From positions 64,001 through 128,000 of the IMG/VR virus record IMGVR_UViG_3300028840_006907: DNA of 64,000 bases. One strand, given 5' to 3'. Below are positions 5,301-54,689 of the stretch, in pieces. The number at the start of each line of letters is the position of its first letter. The first letter of the stretch is position 1. Source of the stretch: a virus. The notes below the pieces were generated by a model. The model worked only from the letters and a program-made list of their open reading frames with translations, did no database searches and was not told where the DNA came from. The translations under genes and the position numbers were made by a program.

Positions 5301-6885
5301 ACTTTCTGATTTCACTAAAATGTACAATCCGTTATCAAAGACTTTATGGTTTAGCCCAAAAACCTATGAGAAGAGAGCAGAAATTGTTACCAGTGAAGAT
5401 GATCCAGCTTTAGCTTCATTGCAAAAGAACATTGCTAAGGATACAGTTTCATTTTCAAAACTCAGCATCTTCGATAAAGAATCCATTAGATCTCTGGCAA
5501 GTACCATCCGGTCAGGTTTATCAAAATTCAAAAAGGAGTTACCAAGAATGGCCTCTTTTAATCCAATCTATTTAACAGTAGAAGAAAAAGCCCTTATGGA
5601 TAAACAAGCTAAGGAAGAAGATCACTTTGAAAAACGTGTTAAATTTGTTTTTCCTGAAGGTGAATTGAATGATGCCAAAAATATGGTAACTCAGCTCAAA
5701 GAGAAGAAATTAGATGATGCATCGAAAAAAGCTCAGAAAGAATTATCAGAATTAATTAAAAATGTCACAAGTGCCTATGATGATTTCGATATAGGTAAAA
5801 TTAAAGCATTGGCAGAAAAAGAGGAGATTTCTGAATCAAAAGCTGCTGTTCGTTTAAAAAGAATAAAAGACTCATTGGCTAAATATGCTCTAAGTCAATT
5901 CATTCTTAAGTGGCAAGATGTCATAGACATGGGATTTAAAGATACTCCAAGAAAGAAAGGACCTTTGGGAGGACCGGAATCCCAAAAATATGATAAAATT
6001 TTGGAAATAATTGAAGAGGATGTACCTGAGTTATTTAAAGAGGCTCCTCCTGAGAAAGAAATAAAAGAAGCTCCTAAAGGCTTACCTACTCCTAAGGAAA
6101 TCAGAGAACGTATCGAAATGGAATTTGAAGAAGGATTTCCAGCACAAAAAGAAAGAGAATACAGAACTCTGAAGGACAAAGGTCATAAATTATTCAAAGA
6201 TCCTTCTGGGGCTGGTGGTGGCGGTGGCGGAAAAGGTAAAAGTCGCCCAAAACCTATAAAGAAACATCCTCCTGCCCATACATATGAAACACTTAAGAGT
6301 AATTTCAAAGAAGCTCTGAAAACAAAATCAGTTCATGACATAGTACTTAGTGAAATAGGCAGGTATTTACATAATGTGAGAAATTATGTGAAAGGTGGCT
6401 CTTATTTCGATGTGGATGATGTTGTTGCTGGAGTTGTCGATGTATTGAAAAATTTTAAAAAAGTCATCAAATCATTAAGAGTAACCATGGATCCAGGAGC
6501 TACTGCAGATATAAAACTGAAAGATGAAAAAGAGGCAAAACAACTTTTTAATAAATTATCAGATATTTACAAATTAATAGATATGATTGCTGCTGATGAA
6601 AGTGGGAAACCTGTTATAAAAATAGGTCCTATACCAGGTGATCTGAGTAAGATAAAAACTCAACGTGGTGAACCCGATACCTGGTTCCCGAAAGGTCTTA
6701 TGGAAGCTGTTCAAGTAAAAAAACGAGAAGAGATTGAAGAAGGAGCAAAAGAGAAAGCTCCTGAAAAGTCAGTTTCAGCAAAAAAAGTATCAGCACAATT
6801 TTTGGCTTTTAAATTAGCACATAAGTTTTCCTTTTCAGATTTACAAAAGATTGAAGGTCTGAAAGAAGATATAGATAAAAAATAA
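2341..6885 (+). CDS. giant Lys/Glu-rich coiled-coil protein (1514 aa), function unknown
   Basis: Uninterrupted 4.5-kb ORF with a Gly run GAGGGGGGKGK. The N-terminal part has two HTH-like stretches (MGFVEMAEKTGIPKSSLEEWEK; TKEIESQTDASIGQIKKLK). Confidence 0.7.
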   Translation: MYSIDDFIQTVFSYTLQKQKFFAAAERALKKNLQSYIRPDFFGTSSGDVRLDNLLVSLANRLGEADVEDKRIFLEDAVSDFVSEEKADELRAILETKLERKHKIPEELADKFISKSGLLVDEEKKEFDRVKKDMVKLISGFIYGFFENKFKEFVRAKKKKEDIGREVAPDLEVLPDSELIDQAEKEQEWQEGLTKDLFGYINKNVPEKRRYAYKMILLKRFMVAPASRMGFVEMAEKTGIPKSSLEEWEKDLGRRLAEYLSAGGLGPKFVSEGGLYKKDVKVPDYKDVFKNKENSNDFKDFMEGKQPKTGKPMSEKVKKILELFAEGKDTKEIESQTDASIGQIKKLKSTHFSPWYKEWYAEMLKDVREATERIKKALMIINGETPPPASHEKYVNMAIAKKYPLELTVTFSANYDNQDLIKESDRVDPEKDPVDFKYKHYQVKLERTSRPRIEYTFDQKLTDKGDFEGSPRSSLVIEGNPGHEGLRRRLDEYVEQEMKPEGILPYGPSVKGRKPVQIPVEYVNESLDSTKTYDGSKKRRYRGFIDFADKYKGFMVKDQPHLTRVQEESKREEKKLLPKGGKNEIRKLIQHLKENIGDEMEETTPDKKKVEVWKKQIKELQDHLKKDSEKEIVDFVSKHKERFKFAVSEERMKNVRELMKLRELVENQEQRLLQRKMKGDPKDKDTVKLKEDIATNKDKITKLEKILEETKEPFPPPESAKVQKLLKELSDLGIKDRKLEEFLTSTDLQFFVNQVQGALAKEAQDNIAGVKKNKNMSDEEKKQEYEAIERKRGVKLNKFIELFEAVPEDMKKRLEKYKKADPSGYKKLEKKHGALLNWVNNPEKALSKVKQNLSTPKTLEAPKGKQESVVPMEEEDAKYMLNWLEAQLQGFDVIGERFGQAALKAEGLSPQERVKVEKQLKDTEKEFQDLRNRIGEMEGKGKATTSEIKDLKKDIPTYMRTIEGLKSSLSDSKESPAMIMAQVLTDRLSDFTKMYNPLSKTLWFSPKTYEKRAEIVTSEDDPALASLQKNIAKDTVSFSKLSIFDKESIRSLASTIRSGLSKFKKELPRMASFNPIYLTVEEKALMDKQAKEEDHFEKRVKFVFPEGELNDAKNMVTQLKEKKLDDASKKAQKELSELIKNVTSAYDDFDIGKIKALAEKEEISESKAAVRLKRIKDSLAKYALSQFILKWQDVIDMGFKDTPRKKGPLGGPESQKYDKILEIIEEDVPELFKEAPPEKEIKEAPKGLPTPKEIRERIEMEFEEGFPAQKEREYRTLKDKGHKLFKDPSGAGGGGGGKGKSRPKPIKKHPPAHTYETLKSNFKEALKTKSVHDIVLSEIGRYLHNVRNYVKGGSYFDVDDVVAGVVDVLKNFKKVIKSLRVTMDPGATADIKLKDEKEAKQLFNKLSDIYKLIDMIAADESGKPVIKIGPIPGDLSKIKTQRGEPDTWFPKGLMEAVQVKKREEIEEGAKEKAPEKSVSAKKVSAQFLAFKLAHKFSFSDLQKIEGLKEDIDKK

Positions 6886-6923: not shown

Positions 6924-7682
6924 TTGGAGACATCTGTGAAGTATAGCGTACTTGTACCCTACTATAAACGCCTAGGGCACCTACATAATACCTTTATTTC
7001 CTTTCTACACCATTATTCAGATAGAAATGATTATGAGGTTGTCATAGCAGAAGATTATAAAAATGTCCAGAATAAAAAAGACCATGACGGTCTATCAGAA
7101 ACCATTGAGAAATTCCGTGAAAAAATACCGATAATTCATTTAACTCTTTCTATGGAAACCTGGAATCCAGCTCATGGTTTTAATGAAGCTGCAAAGTGGG
7201 CTTCTGGTGAATATTTCGTTGTAACCAATCCAGAATGTTTCCATCAAGTGAACATACTGGCTGGACTCGATAAAGAATTTGAAGAAGACCCCAATGTCTA
7301 TGTTGTATGTGGTTGTATGAATTATGTCCGTTGTAATTTTTTTATTAAAAACTTTAATGATCTAAATGGAAAATTTCAGAGATGGTACCAACACTCAATA
7401 CATAGAGCAGCCCACTATCATTTCTGTTCAGCTATTTCAAAACAGAATTGGGTAAAAATAGGAGGATTCGATGAAGACTTTGCTATGGGTATAGCCTATG
7501 ATGATGTCGATTTTAAATTAAGCATTCAAAAAGCCAAGATACCCTTTCATATCCGGGATGACCTTCTTACTATACATATTGACCATGGTTCCTTCCCATC
7601 TCCTCCAAATGCTCAGAAATTAGTTAATCGAAATAGAATCACCTATCAAAGAAAATGGGAAGGAAGTAATGAATCTTACTAG
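6924..7682 (+). CDS. family-2 glycosyltransferase
   Basis: YSVLVPYYKR N-terminus, EDY and DDVDF acidic motifs. The start may be GTG at 6936, 5 nt after GGAGA. Confidence 0.7.
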   Translation: METSVKYSVLVPYYKRLGHLHNTFISFLHHYSDRNDYEVVIAEDYKNVQNKKDHDGLSETIEKFREKIPIIHLTLSMETWNPAHGFNEAAKWASGEYFVVTNPECFHQVNILAGLDKEFEEDPNVYVVCGCMNYVRCNFFIKNFNDLNGKFQRWYQHSIHRAAHYHFCSAISKQNWVKIGGFDEDFAMGIAYDDVDFKLSIQKAKIPFHIRDDLLTIHIDHGSFPSPPNAQKLVNRNRITYQRKWEGSNESY

Positions 7683-9762
7683 TTATACCGCAGCCGACAG
7701 TATCCCGATAAAATTGATTAAGAACTTTAAATTGTTAAAGTCCATGACAACAAAAGGAGTCATCTTACCAATCCATGTCCAGTTCATACCCACAAATAGA
7801 TGTAACATGAAATGTGGATTTTGTAGCTGTGCTGAAGATGACAGAAAAACAGAAATGTCCCTTAAAAATGCTAAGAAGATCATCAGAAAATTAAAAAAAC
7901 TCGGTACTCAATCCGTAACCATCACCGGAGGAGGAGAACCACTCCTTTATCCTCATCTCCAAGAATTGTTTTCTCTGTTTAAAGATGCCGGGATAAAAAT
8001 CGGTTTTGTTACCAATGGCCTCTTATTAGGTAAATGTACCTATGAAGATGTAACCTGGTGTCGGATTTCTAATTCTGATGAAAGAAAAATGGACATGGAC
8101 TATTATCACACAATAGCTTATGCTGTTGAAGATAACCCAAACGTGGACTGGGCCTTTAGTCATGTCGTTTCTCCAAAACCAAATATCTCCGAAATAAAAC
8201 GGATCATAGAATTTGCCAATCTCCATGATTTTACCCATGTCCGATTAGTAGCTGATCTATTGAATTATAAAGAAGTAGATTTAATGCAGTTAAAAATCAC
8301 TCTTCGAGATGAAAATGTCGATGATGATAAAGTCATCTATCAAAGTAGAAATACCCCGCTCAGAGGCGGAGACTGTTATATATGCTATCTTAAACCCATG
8401 ATAGGGGCTGACTGTAATGTGTACGCTTGTTGTTTAGAGGCTAATGAACCTGTATTAATCCAGAGAAATAACGAAAGGATGTATTTATCTATAAAGGATG
8501 TTGTTCCAGGGGATTATGCTTGTGAATATGGAAAGATTTTAAATGTGTTTCATAAAGAGGGTGAAGAAGGCTTGGAAATAGTTTTGCAAAATAATAGGAC
8601 TATTTATGTTTCGAAAGATCATCTTATGCTTAAATTGACAAACCCTGAAATTAGACATAAGAGAAAGAAGTTATTATCTGACTATGAATTAGATACAATA
8701 GAATCTTCTGAATTAAGAATTGGAGATTTACTTCCGGTCAAATATAAATATGATATTAGTGAAATAAAAGAAGATACTATATCTGAAGAAGAAGCAGAAT
8801 TAATAGGATATTATGTAGCTGAAGGTTGGTCCAATGAACGAACTTGTATAGTTGATAAAAAATATCCTACTAGAACTACCACTATAGGATTTATGCTAGG
8901 GAAAGAGTCAAGAGAATATATAAGAAGATTTGAAGAAATTTGTGATATTTTGAATCTAAATTTTTCTATGACTGAACGTAGAACTGGTATGCAGTATCAG
9001 ATAGGTGCACATAAACCCTACGATGACTTAATTGTACACTGTGGTAATAAAGCAGAATTAAAAAAGATCCCTCCTTTTATTTTAAACGGCTCTGATAAAA
9101 TAAAGTGGAAATTTATTCAAGGCTATTTTGGAGGTGACGGGAATTTTCAAACTCCTTCTAAAAGCTATGATGGTTTTAAAATGAGAATGAGTACTGTCAG
9201 TAGACAACTAGCTAATGATATAATTTATCTCTTTTGTACTTTAAATATTCATGCTTCTATGAGAGTTGAGAGACGTGAAGGAAAAATGATAATAGAAGGA
9301 AGAGAGGTAAATGCTAAAGATCGGTATCATATAAATATAGGGGGAGCCTATAATTTAGAAAAAGCCCCATTCCTAAATGTAATTCAAACAAAAGAAAGAA
9401 GTCCTAAAAGAGCCCTCGGTTTTTTGAAAGATGAGGATAAGGGCATTATGTTTGTACCAGTTAAAGAGATCAGAGAGAAAAAGTTAGGAAAATTAGTAGA
9501 CATTCAAGTGGAAGGTTCAAATAAATTTATATCTTCATTTGGTATAATAGTTCATAATTGTGGCGTCCAGTATGCTCTTAAAAAGCCTTCAAAGAATCTT
9601 CCTAAGAAACTGAGCCTAGGAAGTGCTTTTGATCTTGAGAAGATAATTGAGAACAGTAATAAGCCCCTGGACGGGAGCATGTGTTATCGATGCTATTATA
9701 GTAATTATAACAAGATACTAGGATCCATCCTGGATGATACCGATCATATGGAGTTTGTATGA
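7669..9762 (+). CDS. radical SAM enzyme interrupted by an intein
   Basis: CNMKCGFC (CxxxCxxC) and a GGGEPLL SAM motif. The extein is 321 aa after removing residues encoded by 8431-9558. Confidence 0.85.
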   Translation: MNLTSYTAADSIPIKLIKNFKLLKSMTTKGVILPIHVQFIPTNRCNMKCGFCSCAEDDRKTEMSLKNAKKIIRKLKKLGTQSVTITGGGEPLLYPHLQELFSLFKDAGIKIGFVTNGLLLGKCTYEDVTWCRISNSDERKMDMDYYHTIAYAVEDNPNVDWAFSHVVSPKPNISEIKRIIEFANLHDFTHVRLVADLLNYKEVDLMQLKITLRDENVDDDKVIYQSRNTPLRGGDCYICYLKPMIGADCNVYACCLEANEPVLIQRNNERMYLSIKDVVPGDYACEYGKILNVFHKEGEEGLEIVLQNNRTIYVSKDHLMLKLTNPEIRHKRKKLLSDYELDTIESSELRIGDLLPVKYKYDISEIKEDTISEEEAELIGYYVAEGWSNERTCIVDKKYPTRTTTIGFMLGKESREYIRRFEEICDILNLNFSMTERRTGMQYQIGAHKPYDDLIVHCGNKAELKKIPPFILNGSDKIKWKFIQGYFGGDGNFQTPSKSYDGFKMRMSTVSRQLANDIIYLFCTLNIHASMRVERREGKMIIEGREVNAKDRYHINIGGAYNLEKAPFLNVIQTKERSPKRALGFLKDEDKGIMFVPVKEIREKKLGKLVDIQVEGSNKFISSFGIIVHNCGVQYALKKPSKNLPKKLSLGSAFDLEKIIENSNKPLDGSMCYRCYYSNYNKILGSILDDTDHMEFV
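8431..9558 (+). mobile_element. LAGLIDADG-type intein (376 aa) inside the radical SAM gene
   Basis: N-terminal junction YAC|CLEANEPVL; block B SKDH. Two LAGLIDADG motifs (LIGYYVAEGW, FIQGYFGGDGN). C-terminal junction GIIVHN|C. Confidence 0.85.
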
Positions 9763-10976: not shown

Positions 10977-11540
10977 TTATAGGGATTTATTTGCGTGTGG
11001 AAAAGGTTTAACCACAATTTCTCGATCCAGGAACTTGCACAATGTTGCATATTTATTTTTATCTTCAATATCTATGAGTAGGAATCGGGGTTTGTCTTTG
11101 AAGAACTCTATGATTTCTTCATTCCTCTTATGGTATCGATCTATTATTTCAGCTTTGTTCTCTGGAATAAATTCAATCTTCCATATCCAGTTATACATGA
11201 CTTGTGCATTTTTTAATTGAATCCAATTTAAAACTGAGTTAAACCATTTCTCGGGATCCCGGGTCAAATGAATGAAGTAGGCATCGGGGAACATATCATA
11301 GAGCATTTCATGACTCCCTTCTAAATTGAAAGGGATATCACAAAATAAATTGGCTGTATATTTTCTTAATCGAAAAGCTTTAAAAAGTTGAATCATATTT
11401 TCTTTGGAATGTTTAAGTCCACCTCCAAGATAGAGTCCATATGCTTTAGTAGAGGGAATAGGGTTGAAACCAAGCTTTTTTATGGCTTGTTCCATAGAGG
11501 TTGTACCGGTTTTATTTGAGCCTATACAAAAGACTTTCAT
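10977..11540 (-). CDS. sulfotransferase-family protein
   Basis: N-terminal MKVFCIGSNKTGTTS, a PAPS-binding P-loop-like motif typical of sulfotransferases. Confidence 0.55.
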   Translation of the reverse strand: MKVFCIGSNKTGTTSMEQAIKKLGFNPIPSTKAYGLYLGGGLKHSKENMIQLFKAFRLRKYTANLFCDIPFNLEGSHEMLYDMFPDAYFIHLTRDPEKWFNSVLNWIQLKNAQVMYNWIWKIEFIPENKAEIIDRYHKRNEEIIEFFKDKPRFLLIDIEDKNKYATLCKFLDREIVVKPFPHANKSL

Positions 11541-11983: not shown

Positions 11984-12025
11984 TCTAGGAATGTAAAGTA
12001 TTAGAGGATTATTAAGGGGAGGGAA

Positions 12026-15018
12026 ACCCCGCTCAGATGCAGGGAAGAAGATTTCATTAAGAAGTTTTAGGAAGAGCCCCGCAGAGGAGGAACCTCGCAA
12101 GATGCGGGGAAAAGGAACTTCAGGCAATTGGCTGGGATTAGCCCCGCGAAGGTGCGGGGAAAACAGTTTCCATGAACTATATTAGGGAGAGCCCCGTTGA
12201 CACGGGGAAAAACCCGTCTTTACTTAGTGAGATCGAGGAAGGAACAGCCCCGTTGATACGGGGATAAAATAATATGACTTTTACGAATCCTCTAGGGACA
12301 GCCCTGCAGAGTGCAGGGAAAAGTAACGTCTGGGAATTGTTTAGGATTAGCCCCGCGAAGGTGCGGGGAAAGCCATAGATTTTATATTGACACAGGAAAA
12401 ACCCCGGTATAGTCCGGGGAAAAGTACGTAATCAAGATGTAAGAGGATTAGACCCGGCGAGTCCGGGAAAAGATTGGCCCAATCACTATTAAGTAGGGTG
12501 GGATAGCCCCGCAGAATGCAGGGAATAGATGCCTCACTTCATACCACTGCGTCAACCCCAGTAGAGTCCGGGGAACATGAGTGTAAATCTCTGTCGTAGG
12601 TTCAACCCCGGAGAGATCCAGGGGAAATGGGTACAACTTTGTGTACAAGGGGTAGCCCCGGAGAAATCCGAGGAAAATGAGTGTAAATCTGTGTTGAGGG
12701 TCCAGCCCCGCTCAGTGCAGGGAATATTAAGGGTCAAAACCGGTTGCCCCTGCGTCAACCCCGGTGAAGTCCGGGGAACATGAGTGTAAATCTCTGTGGT
12801 AGGATCAACCCCGCAGAGTGCAGGGAAAAATTGAACTTTTTAATCAACCCTGTAACAGCCCCGGAGTCAGTTTTGACAAGTCCGGGGGAATATCACTTCG
12901 TAAAGGAGTGGCTGTCAAGGGGGCAACCCCACAGAGATGTGGGGGAAAGTAAGCCAACGTTCCGGCATAGGCATAGCCCCTGAATTTACAGAGGGCAATT
13001 TTTCCAGTGTCCAGAAGAAGATGCAGGGAGAACCCCGGAAAGTCCAGGGGAAAATGTGTCACAGAACAACTCTTTGTGATCTCCAGGGTGAACCTCGCAG
13101 AGGTGCGGGGGAAAAGTGTCAATGAATACCAGTATGAGTCAGCCCCGGTATAGCCCGGGAATAATTACTTCTAGTCTGATAGAAGGTGCAACCCCGGGAA
13201 GTCCGGGGAAATCGGTCATAGCCATCTGGACCAGGAAGAACCCCGGTGAGATCCGGGGAAAAGGACGTTTAAATCCTGACATAGTAGCTAACTGAGGCGT
13301 AGCTCCGGTCGGGTCAGCCCTGCAGAGAGCAGGGAACAAACATAGGTAATAAATCGGCACGTGACAGCCCCGCAGAGAGGCGGGGATATATAGCGTGAGT
13401 TGCAGGGTAAGGTTCAACCCTTGTTTACCAAGGGAAAAATACCGGCAGATAAGAATTTAGGATGACCCCCGGTGAAAGTCCGGGGAAAATAATTAATACG
13501 CAAAACAGCAGGGCCAGTCCCGCGAGATGCAGGGAATGTTCAGCCAGTTTGTGTAATATTTCAGGAGACGGTGGTGCAACCCTGTCAAGGACAGGGATAT
13601 GCAACATCTGTGGCTCTACGAGGATCAGCCCCGGCAAGTCCGGGGAATTATCTTTTTATAAATGCCAAAAATAACAGTTGGGAGGGGCCAATTCCGCTGA
13701 TGCAGAAAGACATTTCATAATTAATATATTTATGGAAGAGCCCCGGTGAAATCCGGGGAAGTCAAGTAATTACAGCTCGCTGACCACTGGGGGTAGCCCC
13801 GGTAAGATCCGGGGAAAAGTTTGTTTTGAAACAAACGCTAGGAACAGCCCCGCTCAGGTGCGGGAGAATCACTGCATATTTGGTTAATGGCCCCCCTGAG
13901 TCAATCCCGCTCAGGTGCGGGGAAAATAAAGAGATAGACTAATTCAATATGCAGGAAGAACCCCGCTATATGCAGGAAAATTTAAAAAGTATGGATATCT
14001 CCTTGAGTCAACCCCGGAGATCCAGGGAAATGTAGGCACTCGTTGTCCTTTGTCGAAGTGTGAAGGGCAAACCTCGTTGATACGAGGAACAAATTTAGTT
14101 TTACTTTTGAATAAAAGTGGTCAAGCCCCGCTCAGGTGCAGGGAATAGATAAGTATACCGACGATAGCCAGGACAGCACCTGTGGTTTAGCCCTGCATGT
14201 GCAGGGAATAGTTGAGTTGAAGATTGAAGAAAAAGATAAAGTAGGGTCAGCTCTGCATGTGCAGAGAATAGCCTTTCTTCAAGCGTTGACTTGGGAGTAG
14301 GTGGGGATCAGCCCTGCACATGCAGGGAATAGAATGGTGAATCAAATTCCATTTTGTCAAAGAACGGCGACAGCCCTGCCAGTGCAGGGAATATGATTTT
14401 AACGATGGTAAAATTGGGAAGGGGTCAGCCCTGCACATGCAGGGAATAGTCGCTAGTTCAAATCCAATCGCCCCGACAGGATCAGCCCTGCATACGCAGG
14501 GAATAGAAAATACTGACGATAAACTAGCGATATGGGATCAGCCCTGCATACGCAGGGATATAGCTTGACGAATGGCCGTTTTAATGCCAGGAGTAACCCC
14601 GCTGCGAGGAATAGTCATTTCAAATATATAGGTAAAGCCCCGCGAAAGAGCGGGGGTATAATATGGCGGATTTTGTTCTATTGGTGGAATCCGGGCCATC
14701 CCCGTAGATTGACACGGGGAGATCTTTTAGAAATCTACCAAGGTGCCTTTCCGGAGTCATCCCCGTATATACGGGGGAGATTTCAATTCAGGGAATTTCG
14801 GTACAAAATTGGTCGGTTTATCCCCGTATACACGGGGAATATTGTTTCAATAGGGCATAGCAGATCTAGGATCGGGGAATCCCCGCAGGGGCGGGGAACA
14901 TCTCGGATTTATTAATCAAATTCAAACGTTTTTCGGGGAATCCCCGCAGGGGCGGGGAACATTGTTTTAAGAGGTGGTAGTTACCTCGTAGGGGAATCCC
15001 CGCAGGGGCGGGGAACAT
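12026..15018 (-). CRISPR. CRISPR array 1 with highly heterogeneous I-E-like repeats (~55 units)
   Basis: Three identical leader-proximal repeats, GGGGAATCCCCGCAGGGGCGGGGAACAT, start at 14874, 14935 and 14991. Read on the minus strand they are ATGTTCCCCGCCCCTGCGGGGATTCCCC, close to the type I-E consensus GTGTTCCCCGCGCCAGCGGGGATAAACCG. Hairpin units then continue every 49-62 bp down to ~12026. Confidence 0.9.
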
Positions 15019-15057
15019 ACTAAGTCATAATGCCATTCAAATCAAAGGTTTATAGGA

Positions 15058-15112
15058 ACCCTAATTTTCTACCAAAGAAAAATGTACTTGTCATGTATAA
15101 ATGTCAAAGAGC
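15058..15112 (-). promoter_or_regulatory. CRISPR leader, array 1
   Basis: accctaattttctaccaaa..gtacttg.c.t.tataaatgtcaaagagc is nearly identical to 22626-22677. The minus-strand reading contains TTGACA (15102-15107). Confidence 0.7.
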
Positions 15113-15127
15113 GTCAGAGAGAAATCC

Positions 15128-17359
15128 CTAGTGGATATACCGAATCCATTCATATCGAATTTTCATCGTTTTATAAGGAGCTTTTTTTCTCCCTGGAAAT
15201 ATGTTTCCTTCAAAAAGGAAAAATTTTTGAACAATTTTAAATTCAGCGTTTGATGGTGTCAAGCTCTGTGGTGCATAATCCGAACGCCAGTAATTATTAC
15301 AATATATAAATTTTTCTTCTCTGTCTTTTTGTATAAGGCCCGGAAACACCACTAAAACTATCTTTTCGTTTTCAATAACAATATCCCCTTGATAAATAGC
15401 TATTTCTAAATCCAGACCATCCTGCTCTATCACACGAGCATATTTCGAGAGTTTCCCATCAATCTTTACTTTAGCTTTAGGGGGAATATCAAAAGTTATC
15501 CATTCACCTTTTATGTCCTTAATGCTTTGAATAGGTTTTTTAACTGGAATTTCTTGAAAGACATGATCTTGGTATTCTGCTTTTTTAAGGATTTCTCCAT
15601 CTTTTTCCATATTAAGCAATAAAGCCTTTTCCATGATGTCTTTAAGTTCATAGAGATCTTTTTCAGTTAAGGGCTCTTTTGTTCCGAATACGATGGAACC
15701 TACATTCTCTAATCGAGCGATTTTATCAAAACCCTGTTTCCGGACAAAGTCTATGGTAATATGTTCTATTTTTCTATTTCTTGAAAGTCTTATGATTCTT
15801 ACAAATTCAGTTTTAATTGTGTCTTTGAAATTATCAAAACTTAAATGATCTTCTACGTAGGGATGATACAAATCCGCTATAAGACTTAATAAAATTTCTA
15901 TGTCTTCAGGTTTATCCTGTTTACGGTTGTAATCATAAGCTTTAATAATTTCTTGTCTCATTTCCATTAATATATCAGGAGCCATTATTTCACTTAAACT
16001 GGTAGATCCTTTTTTGTCCCGATAAAAGGGAGCTGTTGGAAGTAAGGGAATCCTGATAGCAGCACAAAGTTCTGACATTACAATTGAGGTTAAGAACAAA
16101 TTCAATCTGTCTGAATATAATGCCCTGATATTATTACGTTCTTCTTTTTTAATAGGTGGAACATAAATGTATAACCATATTTTATCTTTTTTAGGGTAAC
16201 ATCTGAAAATACGAAACATTATTTGAGAGAAGGTCACCTGACTCTTTCCATAACTTGTATTATGTAAAACAGCAGCAGGAGGCCAATCATACCCTTCATA
16301 GAATATTCTGCAAGATACGGCGACCCAGTATTTTTTATGATTACGTCTCAATAACTCTCTATTTTTTTTCTGAGTTTCCGGTGTGACTAAATCCAGTACT
16401 TTGGACGCAGGATATATTTCGTGAATAGCTTTTAAATATTTTTTAAGGGTTCCTTCCTCTCTGAACCGGTTCCCCATGTCAGGTAATATGACAATGTGTC
16501 TTTGATCTTTGTGCTCTTTCATATATCTAATGATCTGAGTAAGGGGATCTTTCCTATAGTGAGTGAAACGGAAATTGAATTCTTTGATTTTTATGATTGA
16601 GAGATAGTCATTTAATGGGATAACCCATTTTTCAAAATGATGTTTATAAGCATTGGGGACTATTTCTCCTCTGTCTGTGCGGTGGTAAGTAGCTGTATAA
16701 AAATTTACGTTACAAGTAGGTTCATGGATGGTACATACATCTCTGACAAAATCACCCAAATGAGTGGAATCTAGTGGGGTTGATTTTGAATGATGGCATT
16801 CATCTACATGTACAGTTAAATTTCTAAGGGCTTTCTTTTTTTCATAGTTGGTTAATTTTTCCCAGGTCATGACAAACCCTCTATGGGTAGCTGTAGCAAT
16901 AGGGCCTGTTATATGTTTTTCATTGTACGGGTATTTTCGAGGATCTGCTAAAAGGAATTCTTTAAGTCCTTTAATGGATTGAGGGTTTTCACTATTGAAT
17001 TTATGTTCTTTTGGTACTTCCCACAATCTTACCATACCTTTATATTTGATTTTTATTTGTCTATTTTGGGATCTGCAGAAATTTTCACCTATTTCTATTG
17101 TTGGTGCGATAAAGATATGTTTTCGAGTATTTTTAGATATTATGATTTCATCCAGGGATATGCATACTGCTAAAAAAGTTTTGCCGACTCCCCCTGGTGC
17201 ATCAAAGATCATGTATCTGAATTTTTTCCCATATTCTTTTGCATTGCATTGCCAGCCAGAGGGTATCATGATCCCTGATTCAAGTTTTTTATTATAGGTA
17301 CCAAGGTCAACCGGTTCTATTTTAATAGATTGCTGGAAAAGCGGTAATAGCTTTTTCAT
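15128..17359 (-). CDS. SF2 DExH helicase, Cas3'-like position, no HD nuclease domain
   Basis: Motif I APGGVGKT, motif II DECHH, motif III TAT, motif VI-like QIMFRIFR. Only ~55 aa precede the Walker A, so there is no room for an HD domain. Last gene of the cas operon. Confidence 0.75.
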   Translation of the reverse strand: MKKLLPLFQQSIKIEPVDLGTYNKKLESGIMIPSGWQCNAKEYGKKFRYMIFDAPGGVGKTFLAVCISLDEIIISKNTRKHIFIAPTIEIGENFCRSQNRQIKIKYKGMVRLWEVPKEHKFNSENPQSIKGLKEFLLADPRKYPYNEKHITGPIATATHRGFVMTWEKLTNYEKKKALRNLTVHVDECHHSKSTPLDSTHLGDFVRDVCTIHEPTCNVNFYTATYHRTDRGEIVPNAYKHHFEKWVIPLNDYLSIIKIKEFNFRFTHYRKDPLTQIIRYMKEHKDQRHIVILPDMGNRFREEGTLKKYLKAIHEIYPASKVLDLVTPETQKKNRELLRRNHKKYWVAVSCRIFYEGYDWPPAAVLHNTSYGKSQVTFSQIMFRIFRCYPKKDKIWLYIYVPPIKKEERNNIRALYSDRLNLFLTSIVMSELCAAIRIPLLPTAPFYRDKKGSTSLSEIMAPDILMEMRQEIIKAYDYNRKQDKPEDIEILLSLIADLYHPYVEDHLSFDNFKDTIKTEFVRIIRLSRNRKIEHITIDFVRKQGFDKIARLENVGSIVFGTKEPLTEKDLYELKDIMEKALLLNMEKDGEILKKAEYQDHVFQEIPVKKPIQSIKDIKGEWITFDIPPKAKVKIDGKLSKYARVIEQDGLDLEIAIYQGDIVIENEKIVLVVFPGLIQKDREEKFIYCNNYWRSDYAPQSLTPSNAEFKIVQKFFLFEGNIFPGRKKAPYKTMKIRYEWIRYIH

Positions 17360-17628: not shown

Positions 17629-18273
17629 TTAATAAGATTTATACGGTGCAATAAGCATCATACCACATCCGAAACCTTTACTCTTACCAATTCCATTATA
17701 AATAGTATTCACAAAAAGATTTTTATTGACTACCTGAAGGACTCCTCGTAAATCAATACTGAAAAAAGATACAACTTTACCATCTTTTTTTTTGAATTTA
17801 CAGAATTGAAAAGATTGAACGGAATGCTTTTGAATCATATTTTTAAAACCGTAACTTTGGCCACGTTTCTGAAGCCAATTCTTTGAGGATTCGTGAGCAA
17901 TGAAATTCCAATTATAGGGTTCATCAAGAACTTTCATTTCATTTGCCAGATCCGTCATGATTGAAACCTTTTTCCTGGTTTTCAATTTACAAACTTCGGC
18001 ATTGAGTCTGAGATCGTATTGAAGAAATATTCCAGATTTTAAATTATTTAAATCGAATACTTTTGTTTGTGTAGTGTATTCGTCCTCTGGAGGATTTGGT
18101 TTCTTTTTTGATATGATATAAAGTTCACCATTATAGAGATAATAAAGGAAATCTCTTACCCTGTTAGATCTTTGATCACCAAAAAATTCCCAGACTTTTT
18201 GATGAAGCTCATATATACCTTCGGTGGGAGAATATCTTCTCAAGCTGTCACTGTAAATTTTACTCAGAAACAT
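17629..18273 (-). CDS. cas6e: Cas6e (CasE) crRNA endoribonuclease
   Basis: MFLSKIY...YELHQKVWEFF...RDFLY and C-terminal GIGKSKGFGCGMMLIAP parallel E. coli CasE (MYLSKV...LHQGLW...GIGPAKSMGCGLLSLAP). AGGAGG lies 6 nt upstream of the ATG at 18273. Confidence 0.85.
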   Translation of the reverse strand: MFLSKIYSDSLRRYSPTEGIYELHQKVWEFFGDQRSNRVRDFLYYLYNGELYIISKKKPNPPEDEYTTQTKVFDLNNLKSGIFLQYDLRLNAEVCKLKTRKKVSIMTDLANEMKVLDEPYNWNFIAHESSKNWLQKRGQSYGFKNMIQKHSVQSFQFCKFKKKDGKVVSFFSIDLRGVLQVVNKNLFVNTIYNGIGKSKGFGCGMMLIAPYKSY

Positions 18274-18910
18274 TCGATACCTCCTTCCATCCCATATACT
18301 CAATTCGGGATCGGTATTGTTTGGGACCGGTTACCTGATCAAAACGTTGATTGCTTTTTACTATTTTGATACTGGTATCGGTACCTTCCCAAAATATTCG
18401 GTTCTTTTCACGCCCTTTAAGACTACCATTAAGAAATTCAGGAAGAGAGTACTGTTCAAACGCCTCTGAGAGGCTCTCAGCCTTAACGATCTTAGGATCG
18501 GGTGGTATGTCATAGGAACAGCATTTCCTTCCAAGAAAGGGGGTATAGATGGGCCTATTAAGGGCTTCCATTATTTTCTTCAAAGTATAGGGACAGTTTT
18601 CATTCTCCCATATACATACGGTAAAGATGGCATTGACTAGGTAAAATCTATTCGAGACAATTCCTGGTCCGACTCTGACAATATGGAAATCTTTTAGAAT
18701 AGTACCAGGATTATCTTCCCTACAGGCAAATCCTAGTTGGGCAATCTGAGTTAATTCTTTCACCATTTCTCTTGAGACTCCAAGAGAAGCAGCGATTAAC
18801 CCGCTTACGCCAGATTTGGTAGGGTGATCATCTGTCTTTCGGGTATTACCCTGAAGGGGGAGACCCCAGGCGGATAGAGTACCCGAAAGAAGGAATAATA
18901 AATAATTCAT
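18260..18910 (-). CDS. cas5e: Cas5e (CasD)
   Basis: MNYLLFLLSGTLSAWGLP...TRKT..HPTKSGVSGLIAASLGVSRE parallels the Cas5e N-terminus (LRLAGPMQAWG...PTRSGLLGLLGACLGI). Confidence 0.85.
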   Translation of the reverse strand: MNYLLFLLSGTLSAWGLPLQGNTRKTDDHPTKSGVSGLIAASLGVSREMVKELTQIAQLGFACREDNPGTILKDFHIVRVGPGIVSNRFYLVNAIFTVCIWENENCPYTLKKIMEALNRPIYTPFLGRKCCSYDIPPDPKIVKAESLSEAFEQYSLPEFLNGSLKGREKNRIFWEGTDTSIKIVKSNQRFDQVTGPKQYRSRIEYMGWKEVSNVSE

Positions 18911-18933: not shown

Positions 18934-20019
18934 TTAGAAATCGATGAATTTAATAAGTTCGTTAAGTGATCCTTCTTTTGTGAGTACATTCAAGATCCTA
19001 TAATCCATTTCATGGTAACATGAATCAAAACTACTTTTCATGTCAAGAAGGGCTTTGACAGCATTTTCCATAACCGCAGGACCTTTAATAGGAGTATGGA
19101 AGGCTTGACAGAGACTTCGTGGGGCAGTTGGAGCTTTTTCGATCATAACGAATGCTGGCCATGTTTGACTATCAGCACATCTGTTTTTATTAGCTGAGGG
19201 GGATGAAGTGGTTAATACTTCGACTATCTGTCGGATGGTTTTGATAGCTAGTTCTTTATTACCTTGAAGATTTTTCGTTAAGAGCTTGGAATTGATTACA
19301 AAGAAACTATAATAGACACCCTGGGTAAAATAGAAATTATCTAGGTGACCTGAACCTTTGGTTCCTTCTAATCCAAGGTTATCGGTAGCTGTAAAATAGT
19401 CGGTTTGGACAGATCCTATATCATTGACAGTAAAAGCGAAATTTGAGGACAGTGAAGCTTCAACATCATATTGGGGCAGTTTTGCAATCATGCGACCGGT
19501 AAGGGCTGTTCTGATTCCTGTATTTTCTTTTAAAAAGAAGAATTCTTGATCAGTGGGTTTATGCCCCTCAATAATTTTGTCAATCAGTTCTTCAATATGT
19601 TGTCTTTCGCTCGGTTGAATTTTAATGGTTTCGGTTTTAAGAAGATCAACCTTTTTTTTCTTTTTCTTTGTATTTTTATCATCTTCTTTTTCAGTGTGCT
19701 TTTTGATATCAACAAAAGTACCAATAAATTTAAATGCGTATTCTTCAGCTTTTTTAGGTGATATTCCACCATCAATTAATCTTTTCTCGACATATTTTCC
19801 AATAAGAGGAGTCTGAAGACCTATATCGATTTCGCACCTTTCAAATAGAGCCTTGTTTAAATCATATTTTCGATTTTGTGAAGACGAATAACCTCGGTTG
19901 GTATCATTAAGTTTCATTGTTTTAGGACGTCCGTCCTGGCCTCGGTTTATGCTAGATACAGCTACACCAGTGAGAAGGTGAATTAACCAGTAGGGGTCTT
20001 TAATAATAGTTTTAGACAT
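18934..20019 (-). CDS. cas7e: Cas7e (CasC/Cse4) backbone subunit
   Basis: LIHLLTGVAVSSINRGQDGRPKT...RGYSSSQNRKYDLNKAL parallels CasC (HVLISHSPSCLNRDD...RISSQSLKRAMR). 361 aa, like CasC. Confidence 0.85.
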   Translation of the reverse strand: MSKTIIKDPYWLIHLLTGVAVSSINRGQDGRPKTMKLNDTNRGYSSSQNRKYDLNKALFERCEIDIGLQTPLIGKYVEKRLIDGGISPKKAEEYAFKFIGTFVDIKKHTEKEDDKNTKKKKKKVDLLKTETIKIQPSERQHIEELIDKIIEGHKPTDQEFFFLKENTGIRTALTGRMIAKLPQYDVEASLSSNFAFTVNDIGSVQTDYFTATDNLGLEGTKGSGHLDNFYFTQGVYYSFFVINSKLLTKNLQGNKELAIKTIRQIVEVLTTSSPSANKNRCADSQTWPAFVMIEKAPTAPRSLCQAFHTPIKGPAVMENAVKALLDMKSSFDSCYHEMDYRILNVLTKEGSLNELIKFIDF

Positions 20020-20045: not shown

Positions 20046-21989
20046 TTATATGTTATTTGAATATTCTCTTTCCCAGTAGAACTTGACATCTTTGCTCCAG
20101 TGGGCATACCCTTCCATGAAACTGATGATGTTAAATCCTTCCATTCGAGAAACAACATCAGCAAATACTTTCCAGTTTTTTTGTATATCCGTTTTATTGA
20201 AACTCATCATTTCGTCAACATGTCGGCGGTTAATTTTTTGAGAACCCATTTGGGCACCGAAAGATTGAGAAAAATCCAGATCCTTAGCTTTAAAAACAAT
20301 TAGTAGAAGAGGTACGAAAAGAGTCTTCATATCTTCTGATCTTAAAGCAGGGAAATGCATAGACATTTCTAAAATAAAATTCAAATAAAGGTCTTCATGT
20401 TTTAAGATATCGATGTCAAAACATCGGGTAAATACCCTATGTTTTTCTGTATTTCTAATAGTCCCGTACCAGGACAGGAATGGTTTGGTAAAGACCTGGT
20501 TAAAATGAGGTAGGTTTAATTTCCTGTATTCGATATGGGCGAAATTCTCATATTCTAATGGTTGTAGTTTAAGAGGTTTAACAACTTTTTTATTTAAGGT
20601 TTCGATAAATTGTTCCTTAAAATATTTCTGTAAACCTCTCTTTTCAGTACCTACATTTTTTTCAAATGTATCGAAAGCTTTAACTACCATCTTTTCCAAC
20701 CATTTTTCGATATTATGATTCTTGAGAACTTCATAGAAGTATTCTTCAGTTTCTGTCAGAAATTCGTGAAATATTAAAGGTTCGGTTTTATCAGTTCCCC
20801 AGAACTTTCTTATATAATTACAGGTATACCATCCTATAAGATATGAGTGTTCTCTGATATTTAAAGTAAACGCACTATCTTTATAGAGTTCTTCTGGGAT
20901 ATCGAATTTATTTTCCTCCCATCCAAAGAGTTTGGCTTTAGCCATATTATAACCGAAAGTCCATAATCCGAAATCAGTTATTCCAAGATATTCTCGGTTC
21001 TCCATGAAATGACTCACCACTAAAGCTGGAGTTAATTTTTTAGCTGGTAGTAGATAGGTCACAAGATCGAGATGGCTGGTAAAGTCCAGGGGTTTCCGGA
21101 AACCTGTTTCTTTGCCTTTTATAATGGGTGAAAGGATATGACGTGGTTTGACATAACAGTTACCATAATTCCTCGTTTTTATCTTTCTAACCATTAATTT
21201 GGAATGATTGCCACAGATAGTACATGATTCATCAAATTTATCAAAGATAAGATGAATACGTAGAGGCATTTCCCAGAGCGGGTAATAAGGATTCATCTCA
21301 TCCAGGGAAACAGTAGCTTTGTTTTTACTATCAACGGTATCACTAAGCCATGGGAGTGTTACACCTTTTGGATTTCCTCCGAATTCAAACATGGTCTTTT
21401 TAATAATAACATTAGACCATATTGTTTCCCATAACGTGGAACCGGTAATAATAGTGGTAAGAGAACCATTGGCACCGGCTGTTATCGAAGTACGGTATCC
21501 TTGGCCTCCCATAATGGCACTGAGTTGATTAAGATAAAGGGCAATTGTAGCACAGGATTGGCAAAAAGTATGTATCTTTGCTTTTTGGAAGAAATCTTTA
21601 CCAGCTTTAATTGTCGCTGTCCCTGGAGTATCAAAGAGGAGATTACCAACATTTACGATTCTTTCAAGGTCCTGTGGCCGTTTATCCTGTAAAAAACGAG
21701 GACCTTTGCCATCTAGTTCAAAGAGTTTTGGTTTAAGTTTTTCTAGGATGGCTTTTTGGTTTGGTGCTTTTTTGAATAGTTTTTTCCATTCTTTCTTACT
21801 TGTAGGAGCAAGATAAGTGTTGAAAAAACCTATGAGAAGCCGTACACCTACAGCATTGAAATCGGGTCTACCGAAATCGAGAGCTATTATAGGGTTATTA
21901 GGTTTTGAAGTTATTTTGTAGGGTGGAATGTTTTCCCTGGTACCGTCTTTTCGGATGACGGGGATCCAAGGGTCCTTAATTACATTCAT
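20046..21989 (-). CDS. cas8e: Cas8e (Cse1) large subunit with fused Cas11/Cse2-like C-terminal domain
   Basis: N-terminus MNVIKDPWIPV and CQSCATIALYLNQ...GGQGYR parallel Cse1 (NWIPV; CGGCTAIALFNQ...GGGFK). The C-terminal ~170 aa (SFGAQMGSQKINRRHVDEMM...HWSKDVKFYWEREY) parallels Cse2 (SLGRALANSGRINERRIFQLI...WWGKRERQQLLEDF). There is no separate cas11 gene. Confidence 0.8.
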   Translation of the reverse strand: MNVIKDPWIPVIRKDGTRENIPPYKITSKPNNPIIALDFGRPDFNAVGVRLLIGFFNTYLAPTSKKEWKKLFKKAPNQKAILEKLKPKLFELDGKGPRFLQDKRPQDLERIVNVGNLLFDTPGTATIKAGKDFFQKAKIHTFCQSCATIALYLNQLSAIMGGQGYRTSITAGANGSLTTIITGSTLWETIWSNVIIKKTMFEFGGNPKGVTLPWLSDTVDSKNKATVSLDEMNPYYPLWEMPLRIHLIFDKFDESCTICGNHSKLMVRKIKTRNYGNCYVKPRHILSPIIKGKETGFRKPLDFTSHLDLVTYLLPAKKLTPALVVSHFMENREYLGITDFGLWTFGYNMAKAKLFGWEENKFDIPEELYKDSAFTLNIREHSYLIGWYTCNYIRKFWGTDKTEPLIFHEFLTETEEYFYEVLKNHNIEKWLEKMVVKAFDTFEKNVGTEKRGLQKYFKEQFIETLNKKVVKPLKLQPLEYENFAHIEYRKLNLPHFNQVFTKPFLSWYGTIRNTEKHRVFTRCFDIDILKHEDLYLNFILEMSMHFPALRSEDMKTLFVPLLLIVFKAKDLDFSQSFGAQMGSQKINRRHVDEMMSFNKTDIQKNWKVFADVVSRMEGFNIISFMEGYAHWSKDVKFYWEREYSNNI

Positions 21990-22210: not shown

Positions 22211-22236
22211 ATTTCCTCCGTTTACACGGAGGAAAT
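22211..22236. promoter_or_regulatory. perfect 10-bp inverted repeat between array 2 and the cas promoter
   Basis: atttcctccg tttaca cggaggaaat. Could terminate the array-2 transcript or act as an operator. Confidence 0.45.
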
Positions 22237-22266
22237 TTAGGATTATATCAGAGATGGGCTCTGAGA

Positions 22267-22586
22267 CAGCCCCGGTAAAGTCCAGGGAAATAAAAATTAG
22301 TGATAATTCGGGAATCAGCAGGAGGAGAGCATCAGCCCTGCGTATGCGGGGAATAGTGTTATCGTCTTACAGGATGTAAAGCAGAGACAGCCCCGCGTAT
22401 GCGGGGAATAGAAATTAATACATCTCATAAAATCTAGCATCAGCCCCGCGTATGCGGGGAATAGTTATTTATCTATACTTCCTACAACTCCCATAACGCA
22501 TCAGCCCCGCGTATGCGGGGAATAGCTCGTTGGTTTTCCCATTCCACAAAAGTTCAACGCATCAGCCCCGCGTATGCGGGGAATAG
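22267..22586 (-). CRISPR. CRISPR array 2 (6 repeats)
   Basis: GCATCAGCCCCGCGTATGCGGGGAATAG occurs at 22437, 22498 and 22559, with variants at 22329 and 22384 and a divergent unit at 22267. The two leader-proximal spacers are 33 nt. Minus-strand reading is CTATTCCCCGCATACGCGGGGCTGATGC. Confidence 0.9.
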
Positions 22587-22625
22587 ACTATAATATAATT
22601 AGTTGAAAATCAGAGAGTTACAAAG

Positions 22626-22677
22626 ACCCTAATTTTCTACCAAAAAAAGTACTTGCCGTTTATAAATGTCAAAGAGC
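22626..22677 (-). promoter_or_regulatory. CRISPR leader, array 2
   Basis: Near-identical copy of 15058-15112, including TTGACA on the minus strand (22667-22672). Confidence 0.7.
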
Positions 22678-22683
22678 TTATCT

Positions 22684-22857
22684 TTAAAGGTATAAATCCT
22701 CTTCATCCTCAGGAGCCAGATCTATATCTGAAAGAGTTCTGCTCCCACCGAAATCTAATTCTAATACTTCATCTTCTCCACCTGTATTAAAAAAATCATC
22801 TTCTTCACTTGGCTCTTTAAGAATCTCATCAGCATCGTATTCTTCGATTGGTAACAT
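22684..22857 (-). CDS. highly acidic 57-aa protein
   Basis: MLPIEEYDADEILKEPSEEDDFFNTGGEDEVLELDF...EDEEDLYL, hand-translated. Ends 7 nt before the array-2 leader. Confidence 0.45.
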   Translation of the reverse strand: MLPIEEYDADEILKEPSEEDDFFNTGGEDEVLELDFGGSRTLSDIDLAPEDEEDLYL

Positions 22858-34425: not shown

Positions 34426-34502
34426 TGGTACCCCAATCAGGACTCTAACCTGAAATCTTTGGCTCCGGAAACCAACGCTTTATACAATTAAGCTATTGGG
34501 GC
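34426..34502 (-). tRNA. tRNA-Arg(CCG)
   Basis: Hand-folded cloverleaf: acceptor GCCCCAA/TTGGGGT, anticodon loop TTCCGGA, T-loop TTAGAGT, CCA encoded. Confidence 0.85.
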
Positions 34503-34511
34503 ATTATAAGA

Positions 34512-34586
34512 TGGCGGTGCGTAAGGGAATCGAACCCTTGCCAGGAGATCGACAGTCTCCGGTCCTAACCACTGAACGAACGCACC
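34512..34586 (-). tRNA. tRNA-Asp(GTC)
   Basis: Acceptor GGTGCGT/ACGCACC, anticodon loop CTGTCGA, T-loop TTCGATT, CCA encoded. Confidence 0.9.
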
Positions 34587-34782
34587 GTATTTTTATTAAT
34601 CAATTTTTTTATTTCCGATAAAAAGACCGCAGTCGCATTGCCGAGCCATTTTCGTTTTATTCTTTATTACAATGCCTATTGCTTTAATAGGCTTTTTACA
34701 AGTGTTGCAAATATTTTGCTGTGTCTTTTTGTCATGCTGTTTCACTGCTGTTTTAGCCATTACTTGTACTCCTTAAATGTTA

Positions 34783-34856
34783 TGGCAGGGACGGTCAGAT
34801 TCGAACTGACATCGCCGGTTTTGGAGACCGGGTGCTTGACCGTTAGCGACGCCCCT
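34783..34856 (-). tRNA. tRNA-Trp(CCA)
   Basis: Acceptor AGGGGCG/CGTCCCT, anticodon loop CTCCAAA, T-loop TTCGAAT, CCA encoded. Confidence 0.85.
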
Positions 34857-35135: not shown

Positions 35136-35143
35136 TTGACTTA

Positions 35144-35221: not shown

Positions 35222-35227
35222 GTATTT

Positions 35228-54683: not shown

Positions 54684-54689
54684 AAATGG

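Follow-up and report, generated by a model that had tools for sequence, protein, structure and literature searches.

A probable inherited guide library for a type I-E-like Cascade in a huge phage, with divergent repeats and spacers in three length classes

Type I-E CRISPR–Cas systems are the closest described counterparts of the locus analyzed here: a long array of hairpin-forming repeats, array 1, with an adjacent operon of CRISPR-associated (cas) genes, in a 64,000-nucleotide viral sequence (IMG/VR record IMGVR_UViG_3300028840_006907, positions 64,001 to 128,000; hereafter the window). Natural I-E arrays favor spacers of 31–33 nt, yet Escherichia coli Cascade also assembles on spacers shortened by 6, 12 or 18 nt, with fewer Cas7 subunits at one per 6 nt, and interference persists with spacers longer than 20 nt (Kuznedelov et al., PMC5159557). 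The same complex needs all eight bases of the CRISPR RNA (crRNA) handle, whose sequence matters, and its crystal structures reveal base-specific contacts by Cas5 and Cas7.6 at handle positions -7, -5, -3 and -2 (Beloglazova et al., PMC4288178). CRISPR–Cas systems are also carried by huge phages, for which targeting of host translation-related genes has been reported (Al-Shayeb et al., PMC7162821).

Set beside these systems, array 1 keeps the I-E repeat architecture and the four Cascade genes, and departs from them in its repeats, which nearly all differ, and in its spacers, most of which are short and fall into discrete length classes. As judged from these sequence features, array 1 is probably an inherited guide library for a type I-E-like Cascade without adaptation genes or Cas3 in the window, its repeats drifting under constraints set by the proteins that read them.

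A long array of divergent hairpin repeats

The window holds two arrays, each with its own leader:

12,019–15,018, minus strand: array 1, about 55 repeat-spacer units, delimited by hairpin parse, covariance model, covariation and chance controls
15,019–15,127, minus strand: array 1 leader, with the conserved core GCTCTTTGACATTTATA..GTAC..TTTGGTAGAAAATTAGGG
22,262–22,586, minus strand: array 2, six units, of which the first four are identical repeats (CTATTCCCCGCATACGCGGGGCTGATGCG family) and the last two degenerate
22,587–22,700, minus strand: array 2 leader, 82% identical to the array 1 leader

Each unit of array 1 comprises a UU before the stem, a 6-bp hairpin with a loop of 3–8 nt (a few are longer) and an 8-nt handle after the hairpin. 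These units run on past 14,187, where an earlier note on this sequence had ended its description, to about 12,019; the further ~40 units make the array four times as long as the part first flagged. With the repeats of both arrays normalized to 29 nt, 56 of 58 are distinct, and two units differ on average at 11.1 of the 29 positions (~38%). Similarity between neighbors is significant in the first ~15 units only; the distal 37 units lack block structure and each is unique. These comparisons use register-normalized units in place of a raw-unit MAFFT alignment, in which variable loop lengths had misplaced the 5' arms.

The array stands far outside chance expectation. In the 3.15-kb block, 53 units are picked out by a simple hairpin detector, which yields 5.6 on average and 12 at most in composition-matched shuffles, and 0–3 in window segments of equal length elsewhere. 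When the 64-kb window is scanned with a covariance model derived from the units, matches occur only at 12,019–15,018 (55 intervals) and 22,262–22,586 (six), the full-length ones being on the minus strand nearly throughout. Two gaps of 82 and 88 nt were considered as leader remnants or internal promoters and rejected, as each holds a degenerate or long-loop unit. Because the leader, a stretch of about 115 nt preceding each array, is common to both, both arrays are read on the minus strand, which is also the cas strand. Measured against a strict definition of a CRISPR array, the locus has a leader at one end and adjacent cas genes; its repeats are not near-identical, and its spacers are not regular, unique and of one length, as they fall into three classes and include some diverged duplicates.

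Several smaller features accompany the arrays. At 15,234–15,262 on the minus strand, the region has its best match to a sigma-70-like promoter (TTGACA-17-TAAAAT, 11/12), upstream of the leader core and within the 3' end of the helicase gene; the core itself holds a TTGACA with a spacer of just 15 nt to TACATT. Array 2 is followed, just past its last degenerate unit, by a 7-bp hairpin (TCCTCCG-TGTAAA-CGGAGGA) at 22,214–22,233, possibly a terminator or else a terminal repeat that has diverged strongly. Mechanical open reading frames (ORFs) of 92–127 residues lie inside array 1 (14,532–14,915, plus strand; 12,844–13,417, minus strand), and public gene calls (JGI, Logan) place a gene of 116–127 residues on the opposite strand within it. 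These ORFs are almost certainly artifacts that the G+C-rich repeats induce in gene calling.

The features that remain constant among the repeats are those a I-E Cascade would be expected to read. When the stem is treated as six pairs, pairing holds in 98% of cells of the units, which were chosen for at least 5/6 pairs; 41 cells are compensatory (shuffles, 11.8 ± 2.6), and 5/6 pairs show double changes. The innermost pair is C:G in 31 units, G:C in 18 and U:A in seven, with no mispairs; the three lowest pairs are nearly always C:G. Such a hairpin is found at nearly every expected position of the array. In the handle, 56/56 units have U-7, 55/56 have C-2 and 43/56 have C-3, and positions -8, -6, -5, -4 and -1 are free to vary; the only notable deviation is the array 2 handle, CTGATGCG, with G at -3.

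The constant handle positions are three of the four at which E. coli Cascade makes base-specific contacts, and by analogy with that complex the blocks of array 1 appear to differ where no reading of base identity is reported. The earlier note had found it unclear how one Cascade could load more than one repeat family. Because the conserved positions coincide with the E. coli contacts and the Cas6e hairpin is kept by compensatory change, that puzzle largely dissolves, with the array 2 G at -3 still deviant; a single Cascade could plausibly load all the repeat variants. In sequence architecture and conserved positions, the units fit a 28–29-nt I-E repeat whose stable hairpin would be cut by Cas6e at its 3' base to leave an 8-nt 5' handle, and the encoded Cas6e retains the histidine and G-rich loop.

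The spacers are quantized in length. Gaps between hairpins in array 1 peak at 32 (n = 16), 38 (n = 7) and 44–45 nt (n = 7), and pooled over seven arrays (n = 115) the peaks lie at 32, 38–39 and 45 nt. As 13 bases of each gap belong to the repeat outside the hairpin, the spacers themselves measure ~19, 25–26 and 32 nt. The top class has the canonical I-E geometry, a 45-nt gap for a 32-nt spacer, and most units carry ~19- or 25-nt spacers. The classes are 6–7 nt apart, near the 6-nt footprint of one Cas7. Three coexisting classes are unusual in a natural array, because natural I-E arrays prefer 31–33 nt (PMC5159557), and functional constraint fits them better than decay.

Repeat blocks, related arrays and conserved spacers

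The leader-proximal units fall into three blocks:

14,873–15,018, minus strand: block 1, three repeats next to the leader, identical to one another, with ~27- and 32-nt spacers
14,692–14,842, minus strand: block 2, three CCCCGU/ACGGGG-stem units, all different
14,183–14,562, minus strand: block 3, seven units with CCCUGC/GCAGGG stems (CUCUGC/GCAGAG in one), flanks like those of array 2 and the handles CUGAUCC/CUGACCC

All three had been described in the earlier note, largely correctly. The identical repeats stand at 14,873–14,901, 14,934–14,962 and 14,990–15,018 and read ATGTTCCCCGCCCCTGCGGGGATTCCCCG on the minus strand; block 1 is the part of the array closest to canonical I-E arrays. The CCCCGT/ACGGGG hairpins are present at 14,699–14,720, 14,761–14,776 and 14,821–14,838, in units that differ from one another and carry the handles ATAAACCG, ATGACTCC and ATGGCCCG, one unit having the E. 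coli-type handle AUAAACCG. The block 3 units, with the plus-strand flanks ATCAG or GTCAG and GAATAG, are likewise real: seven lie at 14,183–14,562, one of them CTCTGC/GCAGAG. Their loops had been given as ATAC or CATG, whereas on the plus strand they read ATGT, ATGT, ACAT, CAGT, ACAT, ATAC and ATAC. Handles do differ between blocks as claimed, although the CTGATGC ascribed to block 3 is the array 2 form, and the block itself has CTGATCC or CTGACCC. Block 3 gives the top covariance-model scores and, in a direct comparison of normalized units, differs from array 2 at 6/29 positions. A mosaic of repeat families therefore does exist, but these families are just the most homogeneous leader-proximal blocks, about a quarter of the array.

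Related loci were sought through a database of 5.8 billion proteins, which contains only five Cas7e homologs (57–65% identity) and seven homologs of the neighboring helicase. Wherever the relatives are sequenced, the gene order is cas8e, cas7e, cas5e, cas6e and then the helicase. Repeats are heterogeneous in all six related loci with array sequence: in L004 40 of 40 units are distinct, and in L130 heterogeneity begins at the leader. In L004, L130 and L003, conservation in the handle once more falls on U-7, C-2 and C-3, and a leader-like element precedes the arrays of L130 (CGCTCTTTGACAT..GGTAGGAAATT) and L128 (CGTTCTTTGACAT). Because every related array is heterogeneous, heterogeneity is a property of the clade and not an accident of one genome. 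Two of the loci have additional conserved genes without a Pfam match, which may be further components of this I-E variant: one of ~200 residues between cas6e and the helicase (L129 9,396–10,004; L130 9,399–10,004) and one of ~110 residues after the helicase (L129 12,289–12,618; L130 12,307–12,639).

These comparisons bear on an explanation close to that of the earlier note, in which array 1 is a patchwork: recombination would have brought in repeat-spacer blocks from several I-E arrays of bacteria or phages, to be processed or loaded by different systems of the host or the phage. The block structure of the first ~15 units is what such capture would leave, as is the resemblance of block 3 to array 2. 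Some units also have outside counterparts: unit 14,814–14,842 of block 2 and an I-E repeat of Proteus mirabilis share 96% identity, others resemble Streptomyces and Thioclava repeats, and the first ~4 units, and only these, match annotated E. coli CRISPR arrays periodically. The Proteus match lends weak support to the suggestion that the families correspond to different host I-E systems, a suggestion that leaves the 19- and 25-nt spacers, and the heterogeneity in every related phage, unexplained. Bacterial I-E spacers of 31–33 nt (PMC5159557) do not resemble the mostly ~19- or 25-nt spacers found here, the distal 37 units are unique and show no blocks, all variants keep the same determinants, and a one-off mosaic would not recur across the clade. 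We consider a patchwork origin unlikely.

Some spacers of array 1 are common to diverged phages, and one matches a cellular gene. The units concerned are:

12,821–12,862, minus strand: handle, spacer and start of the next repeat, with an orthologous unit in L128 (87% over 45 nt, 53.6 bits)
12,574–12,811, minus strand: duplicated modules with a 19-nt spacer family, ACGACAGAGATTTACACTC, TCAACACAGATTTACACTC and ACCACAGAGATTTACACTC, plus a diverged copy
14,450–14,477, minus strand: a 28-nt spacer within block 3, antisense to the 3' end of bacterial tRNA-Pro

L128 belongs to a syntenic phage whose genes are 65–74% identical in DNA to those of the window; its array of ~11 units aligns with the distal part of array 1, at 12,440–12,960. 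Shared spacers were judged against a null of 100 shuffles in which repeats were kept and spacers shuffled. The top L128 match scores 53.6 bits against a null maximum of 35.6 and the top L003 match 46.4 bits against 38.3, with 0/100 shuffles reaching the observed score in either case. The 19-nt family has three to four copies in the window, a form in L003 (ACAACAGAAATTTACACAC; 7,665–7,699, 86–89% identity including the spacer) and one in L128 (ACAACGCAAATATACACTC; 3,525–3,608, 74–77%). Matches of L004, L006 and L130 to the window fall within the repeat-preserving null; an all-against-all ungapped comparison was not above shuffles, and the claim of sharing was dropped for these three and restricted to the L128 and L003 units that pass the shuffle test. 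The conservation with L128 and L003 implies that the distal units are old and retained. The ~40 leader-proximal units were either gained later in the window's lineage or lost in that of L128.

The tRNA-Pro spacer covers the T-loop, the 3' strand of the T-stem, the 3' strand of the acceptor, A73 and C74. A 22-mer of it occurs exactly in more than 120 GTDB genomes of many phyla, and ARAGORN calls a tRNA-Pro at 9/11 loci checked. Over its full length the spacer matches the common allele at 26/28 positions and the best at 27/28, with the match ending at the spacer boundaries. The genomic flank of the match is the encoded CCA, so that the side of the protospacer-adjacent motif (PAM) reads NTG; ATG is a known I-E PAM of E. 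coli. An IMG/VR contig (L127, 3,473–3,494) has only the 3' half of the tRNA, as integrase attachment (att) sites do, and for this reason rival elements were considered as well: by sequence match, the target may be the host tRNA-Pro gene or rivals that integrate into it. The phage itself has no tRNA-Pro among the 26 tRNAs seen up to ~70 kb.

Other searches gave no target. Beyond chance, no protospacer occurs in the rest of the window, including the local cas promoters. GenBank phages searched with both arrays gave repeat-to-repeat matches only, and plasmids and E. coli genomes gave I-E repeat similarity and no protospacer. Four spacers found no target in IMG/VR and one found none in the JGI metagenomes, a collection that failed to return the source contig either.

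This paucity of targets would suit a mostly dead relic, in which only the identical leader-proximal units and array 2 function and the other ~50 units are decaying. So would the non-canonical spacer lengths, the weak hairpins (covariance E > 0.01) at 13,684–13,712 and 12,969–12,999, and the oversized loops at 12,851–12,892 and 12,069–12,114. Neutral decay would break hairpins, however, and the stems stay paired by compensatory change at nearly every position. U-7 and C-2 are almost invariant beside positions that vary freely, the gaps are quantized, and the distal units and spacers shared with L128 and L003 are at least as similar between the phages as coding genes are. The tRNA-Pro spacer itself sits in a block of divergent repeats. 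Taken together, these data make a relic very unlikely.

A Cascade operon with no adaptation genes found in the window

Between the two arrays, the minus strand encodes four Cascade genes in the canonical I-E order, followed by a helicase of superfamily 2 (SF2):

20,046–21,989, minus strand: cas8e, 647 residues, with the Cse1 match at residues 2–375
18,934–20,019, minus strand: cas7e, recognized by Pfam, NCBIfam and PADLOC
18,260–18,910, minus strand: cas5e, recognized by Pfam, NCBIfam and PADLOC
17,629–18,273, minus strand: cas6e, 214 residues counted from the ATG
15,128–17,359, minus strand: SF2 helicase, 743 residues, in the place expected for Cas3

The Cascade genes cas8e (cse1), cas7e, cas5e and cas6e are recognized at E-values of 1e-26 to 1e-55 (Pfam, NCBIfam, PADLOC), Cas7e with E 2e-45, yet under the strict NCBIfam cut-off. 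Cas6e retains the context of the catalytic histidine (YELHQ) and a C-terminal G-rich loop, in an alignment to E. coli CasE. In a PADLOC scan of 71 window ORFs, the Cas families among the matches listed are these four only, with no Cas1, Cas2, Cas3 or Cas11 among the best 25 of 39 families; cas1 and cas2 are also missing from the gene tables covering ±10 kb. The small subunit Cas11 (Cse2) likewise has no Pfam match, and the gap between cas8e and cas7e is just 26 nt. Cas8e is ~145 residues longer than usual, its homologs in the relatives having 651–663 residues. Because its C-terminal ~270 residues are matched by no model and there is no separate cas11 gene, a Cas8e–Cas11 fusion is possible on sequence grounds.

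No HD nuclease domain was detected in the helicase, for which Pfam reports ResIII/DEAD only, with the motif I region beginning near residue 53. It has no NCBIfam match, and Cas3 is not among the PADLOC families listed. A Foldseek search with its structural model (pLDDT 67) returned generic SF2 helicases only, with no Cas3-specific or nuclease similarity. The helicase also adjoins the cas genes in L004, L006, L128, L129 and L130.

The proximity of this operon weighs against a further, very unlikely alternative, an RNA decoy whose transcribed hairpins titrate host I-E Cas6e or Cascade in the manner of RNA anti-CRISPRs, with repeat diversity covering host variants: anti-CRISPR or regulatory roles have indeed been proposed for the solitary repeat units and mini-arrays known from phages (bioRxiv 10.1101/2023.03.03.530964), single units do resemble I-E repeats of various bacteria and short spacers would be immaterial, but solitary repeats usually lack adjacent cognate cas genes, whereas here the effector operon is directly upstream on the same strand with a dedicated leader common to both arrays, spacers are conserved across phages, one matches a cellular gene delimited exactly by the spacer boundaries, and spacing is quantized in steps like the Cas7 footprint.

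The window lies within a 388,651-bp metagenomic contig (JGI 3300017963, Ga0180437_10000019); further versions are a copy of 469,617 bp and one in a Logan assembly, and in this region the two copies that were read are 100% identical to the window. Its G+C content is 33%, save for the 3-kb block at 12,000–15,000, which is at ~50%. It contains 21 tRNA genes, a transfer-messenger RNA (tmRNA), a portal-protein match and HNH endonucleases, and is therefore assigned to a huge phage of the type that Al-Shayeb et al. described (PMC7162821). No near relative was found among GenBank phages by megablast or in IMG/VR by a Cas7e search. The RNA genes are:

34,426–35,822, 53,795–55,328 and 60,768–63,431: three clusters with the 21 tRNA genes
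47,873–48,282: tmRNA, tag peptide EKTNTVNFCAMFSALNLAAIHQAEEAVV

Five further tRNAs just past the end of the window (L131) bring the total seen to 26 up to ~70 kb. The distal end of array 1 is flanked by an ORF of 1,514 residues (2,341–6,885) and a sulfotransferase gene (10,977–11,540). Both are syntenic in L128 (7,585–12,207 and 4,839–5,408), so the array occupies a conserved genomic slot. Elsewhere in the window, a radical SAM protein (7,669–9,762) is split by an intein with a LAGLIDADG homing-endonuclease domain, and PADLOC models for pVip (viperin-like) are matched by two ORFs (E 7e-15).

A probable inherited guide library compared with known systems

The data are best accommodated if array 1 is a single leader-driven pre-crRNA locus serving the phage's own Cas8e, Cas7e, Cas5e and Cas6e together with the SF2 helicase. 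Without steady acquisition to re-copy a master repeat, the repeats would have diverged singly, through point mutation, segmental duplication and occasional additions at the leader end. Selection would then be limited to what the proteins read: the UU before the stem, the 6-bp hairpin with its three lower C:G pairs, for Cas6e binding and cleavage, and U-7, C-3 and C-2 in the handle, for contacts with Cas5e and Cas7. All repeat families could thereby fit one Cascade. Transcription of the array and processing of every variant by Cas6e, which we infer, would produce by a cut after the hairpin crRNAs with an 8-nt handle and spacers of ~19, 25–26 or 32 nt. If they behave like engineered E. coli Cascades, complexes with these guide classes would contain ~4, 5 or 6 Cas7 subunits. 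The guides would be inherited, not freshly acquired, some being kept between diverged phages, and one would be aimed at the 3' end of the tRNA-Pro gene or at att sites derived from it. With no nuclease, the likely output would be binding plus helicase action, leading to repression or a block of replication. A host I-E Cas1–Cas2 acting in trans may be responsible for templated additions at the leader end, as proposed for type IV-A3.

Capture, neutral decay and an RNA decoy are each contradicted by several observations, and some observations also weigh against the guide library that we favor. The length steps are 6–7 nt and not exactly 6, with the lowest mode at 32 and not 33, and the 19-nt spacers are at or under the length that gives interference in E. 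coli (>20 nt). The percentage of paired stem cells is partly a product of choosing units with at least 5/6 pairs. Some copying of a master repeat must be recent, given the identical repeats of array 1 (three), array 2 (four) and L006 (five), and a target was found for one spacer only. The sequence covered is 64 kb (~70 kb) of a 388-kb genome, and cas1, cas2 or cas3 could lie elsewhere in it.

More tentatively, and as a possibility we would not yet bet on, this clade of huge phages might use an I-E Cascade lacking Cas1/2 and Cas3 with innate, germline-encoded guides, dozens of which, each with a repeat variant of its own, would evolve individually under long-lasting selection for their retention. 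The three lengths would build Cascades of different size, possibly with different output (short guides repressing, full-length guides directing helicase-dependent interference), against conserved host or rival sequences such as the tRNA-Pro 3' end or att sites. If this is so, the array would amount to a natural deep mutational scan of what an I-E Cascade needs in a repeat. A further hypothesis is opened, that a huge phage with a large tRNA set may guide a nuclease-free Cascade to host tRNA-Pro or to the tRNA-Pro att sites of rivals. If the units are processed, the ~150 repeat variants of the window and its relatives are working variants and form a catalogue of the minimal determinants of Cas6e recognition and Cascade loading; a CRISPR effector could then run on stable inherited guides with drifting repeats, blurring the boundary between adaptive CRISPR immunity and hard-wired RNA-guided regulation. 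On the practical side, CRISPR finders that need near-identical repeats would miss most of the array.

Compared with canonical type I-E (E. coli and Thermus, with 61-nt crRNAs), the locus has Cas8e, Cas7e, Cas5e and Cas6e in the same order, a leader upstream of the array, the pre-stem UU, a 6-bp stem of CCCCGC type and an 8-nt handle with U-7, C-3 and C-2, in one unit exactly AUAAACCG; its largest length class is the 45-nt gap with a 32-nt spacer. It differs in that Cas1, Cas2, Cas3 and a separate Cas11 were not detected in the window, an HD-less SF2 helicase standing in for Cas3, that repeats differ at ~38% of positions and most spacers are ~19 or 25–26 nt, and that spacers are kept between phages whose coding DNA is just 65–74% identical.

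Huge-phage CRISPR–Cas systems (PMC7162821) share the missing adaptation genes and, in a I-C variant, a helicase in place of Cas3. The present system is I-E with Cas6e and not I-C, and its ~55 units contrast with the reported median of six repeats; heterogeneous repeats and quantized short spacers are not described in the accessible part of that account. In engineered Cascades of altered length, Cas7 copies track spacer length in 6-nt steps, and spacers 6 or 12 nt shorter assemble and can work (PMC5159557; Songailiene et al. 2019, PMC6859484). Those are laboratory constructs, whereas the three classes here are natural and coexist in one array and across a phage clade, short natural I-E spacers being reported as rare. 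This would be the first natural case found of I-E guides in length classes 6–7 nt apart, previously seen in engineered Cascades only.

With CreA/CreTA and scaRNA mini-arrays (Shmakov et al. 2023, bioRxiv 10.1101/2023.03.03.530964) the locus has in common degenerate repeats that still load, conserved guides and likely binding without cleavage. Mini-arrays have two repeats, with only 12 longer cases, and target promoters of cas loci; the phage array has ~55 units, and no spacer matches the window beyond chance, so it does not fit a regulatory RNA of the CreA type. In the literature found on huge phages, short-spacer Cascades and mini-arrays, no natural I-E array is described that is long, has co-varying repeats that all differ and has spacers of quantized length.

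Type IV-A systems (bioRxiv 10.1101/2023.06.23.546257) are likewise class 1 effectors on mobile elements with a helicase, DinG, in place of a nuclease and no Cas1 or Cas2. Their repeats are uniform and their effectors are Csf proteins, whereas the phage effectors are I-E and its helicase is not recognizably DinG. Their spacers are acquired in trans, and for the leader end of array 1 such acquisition from a co-resident I-E system would be a plausible source of the identical repeats.

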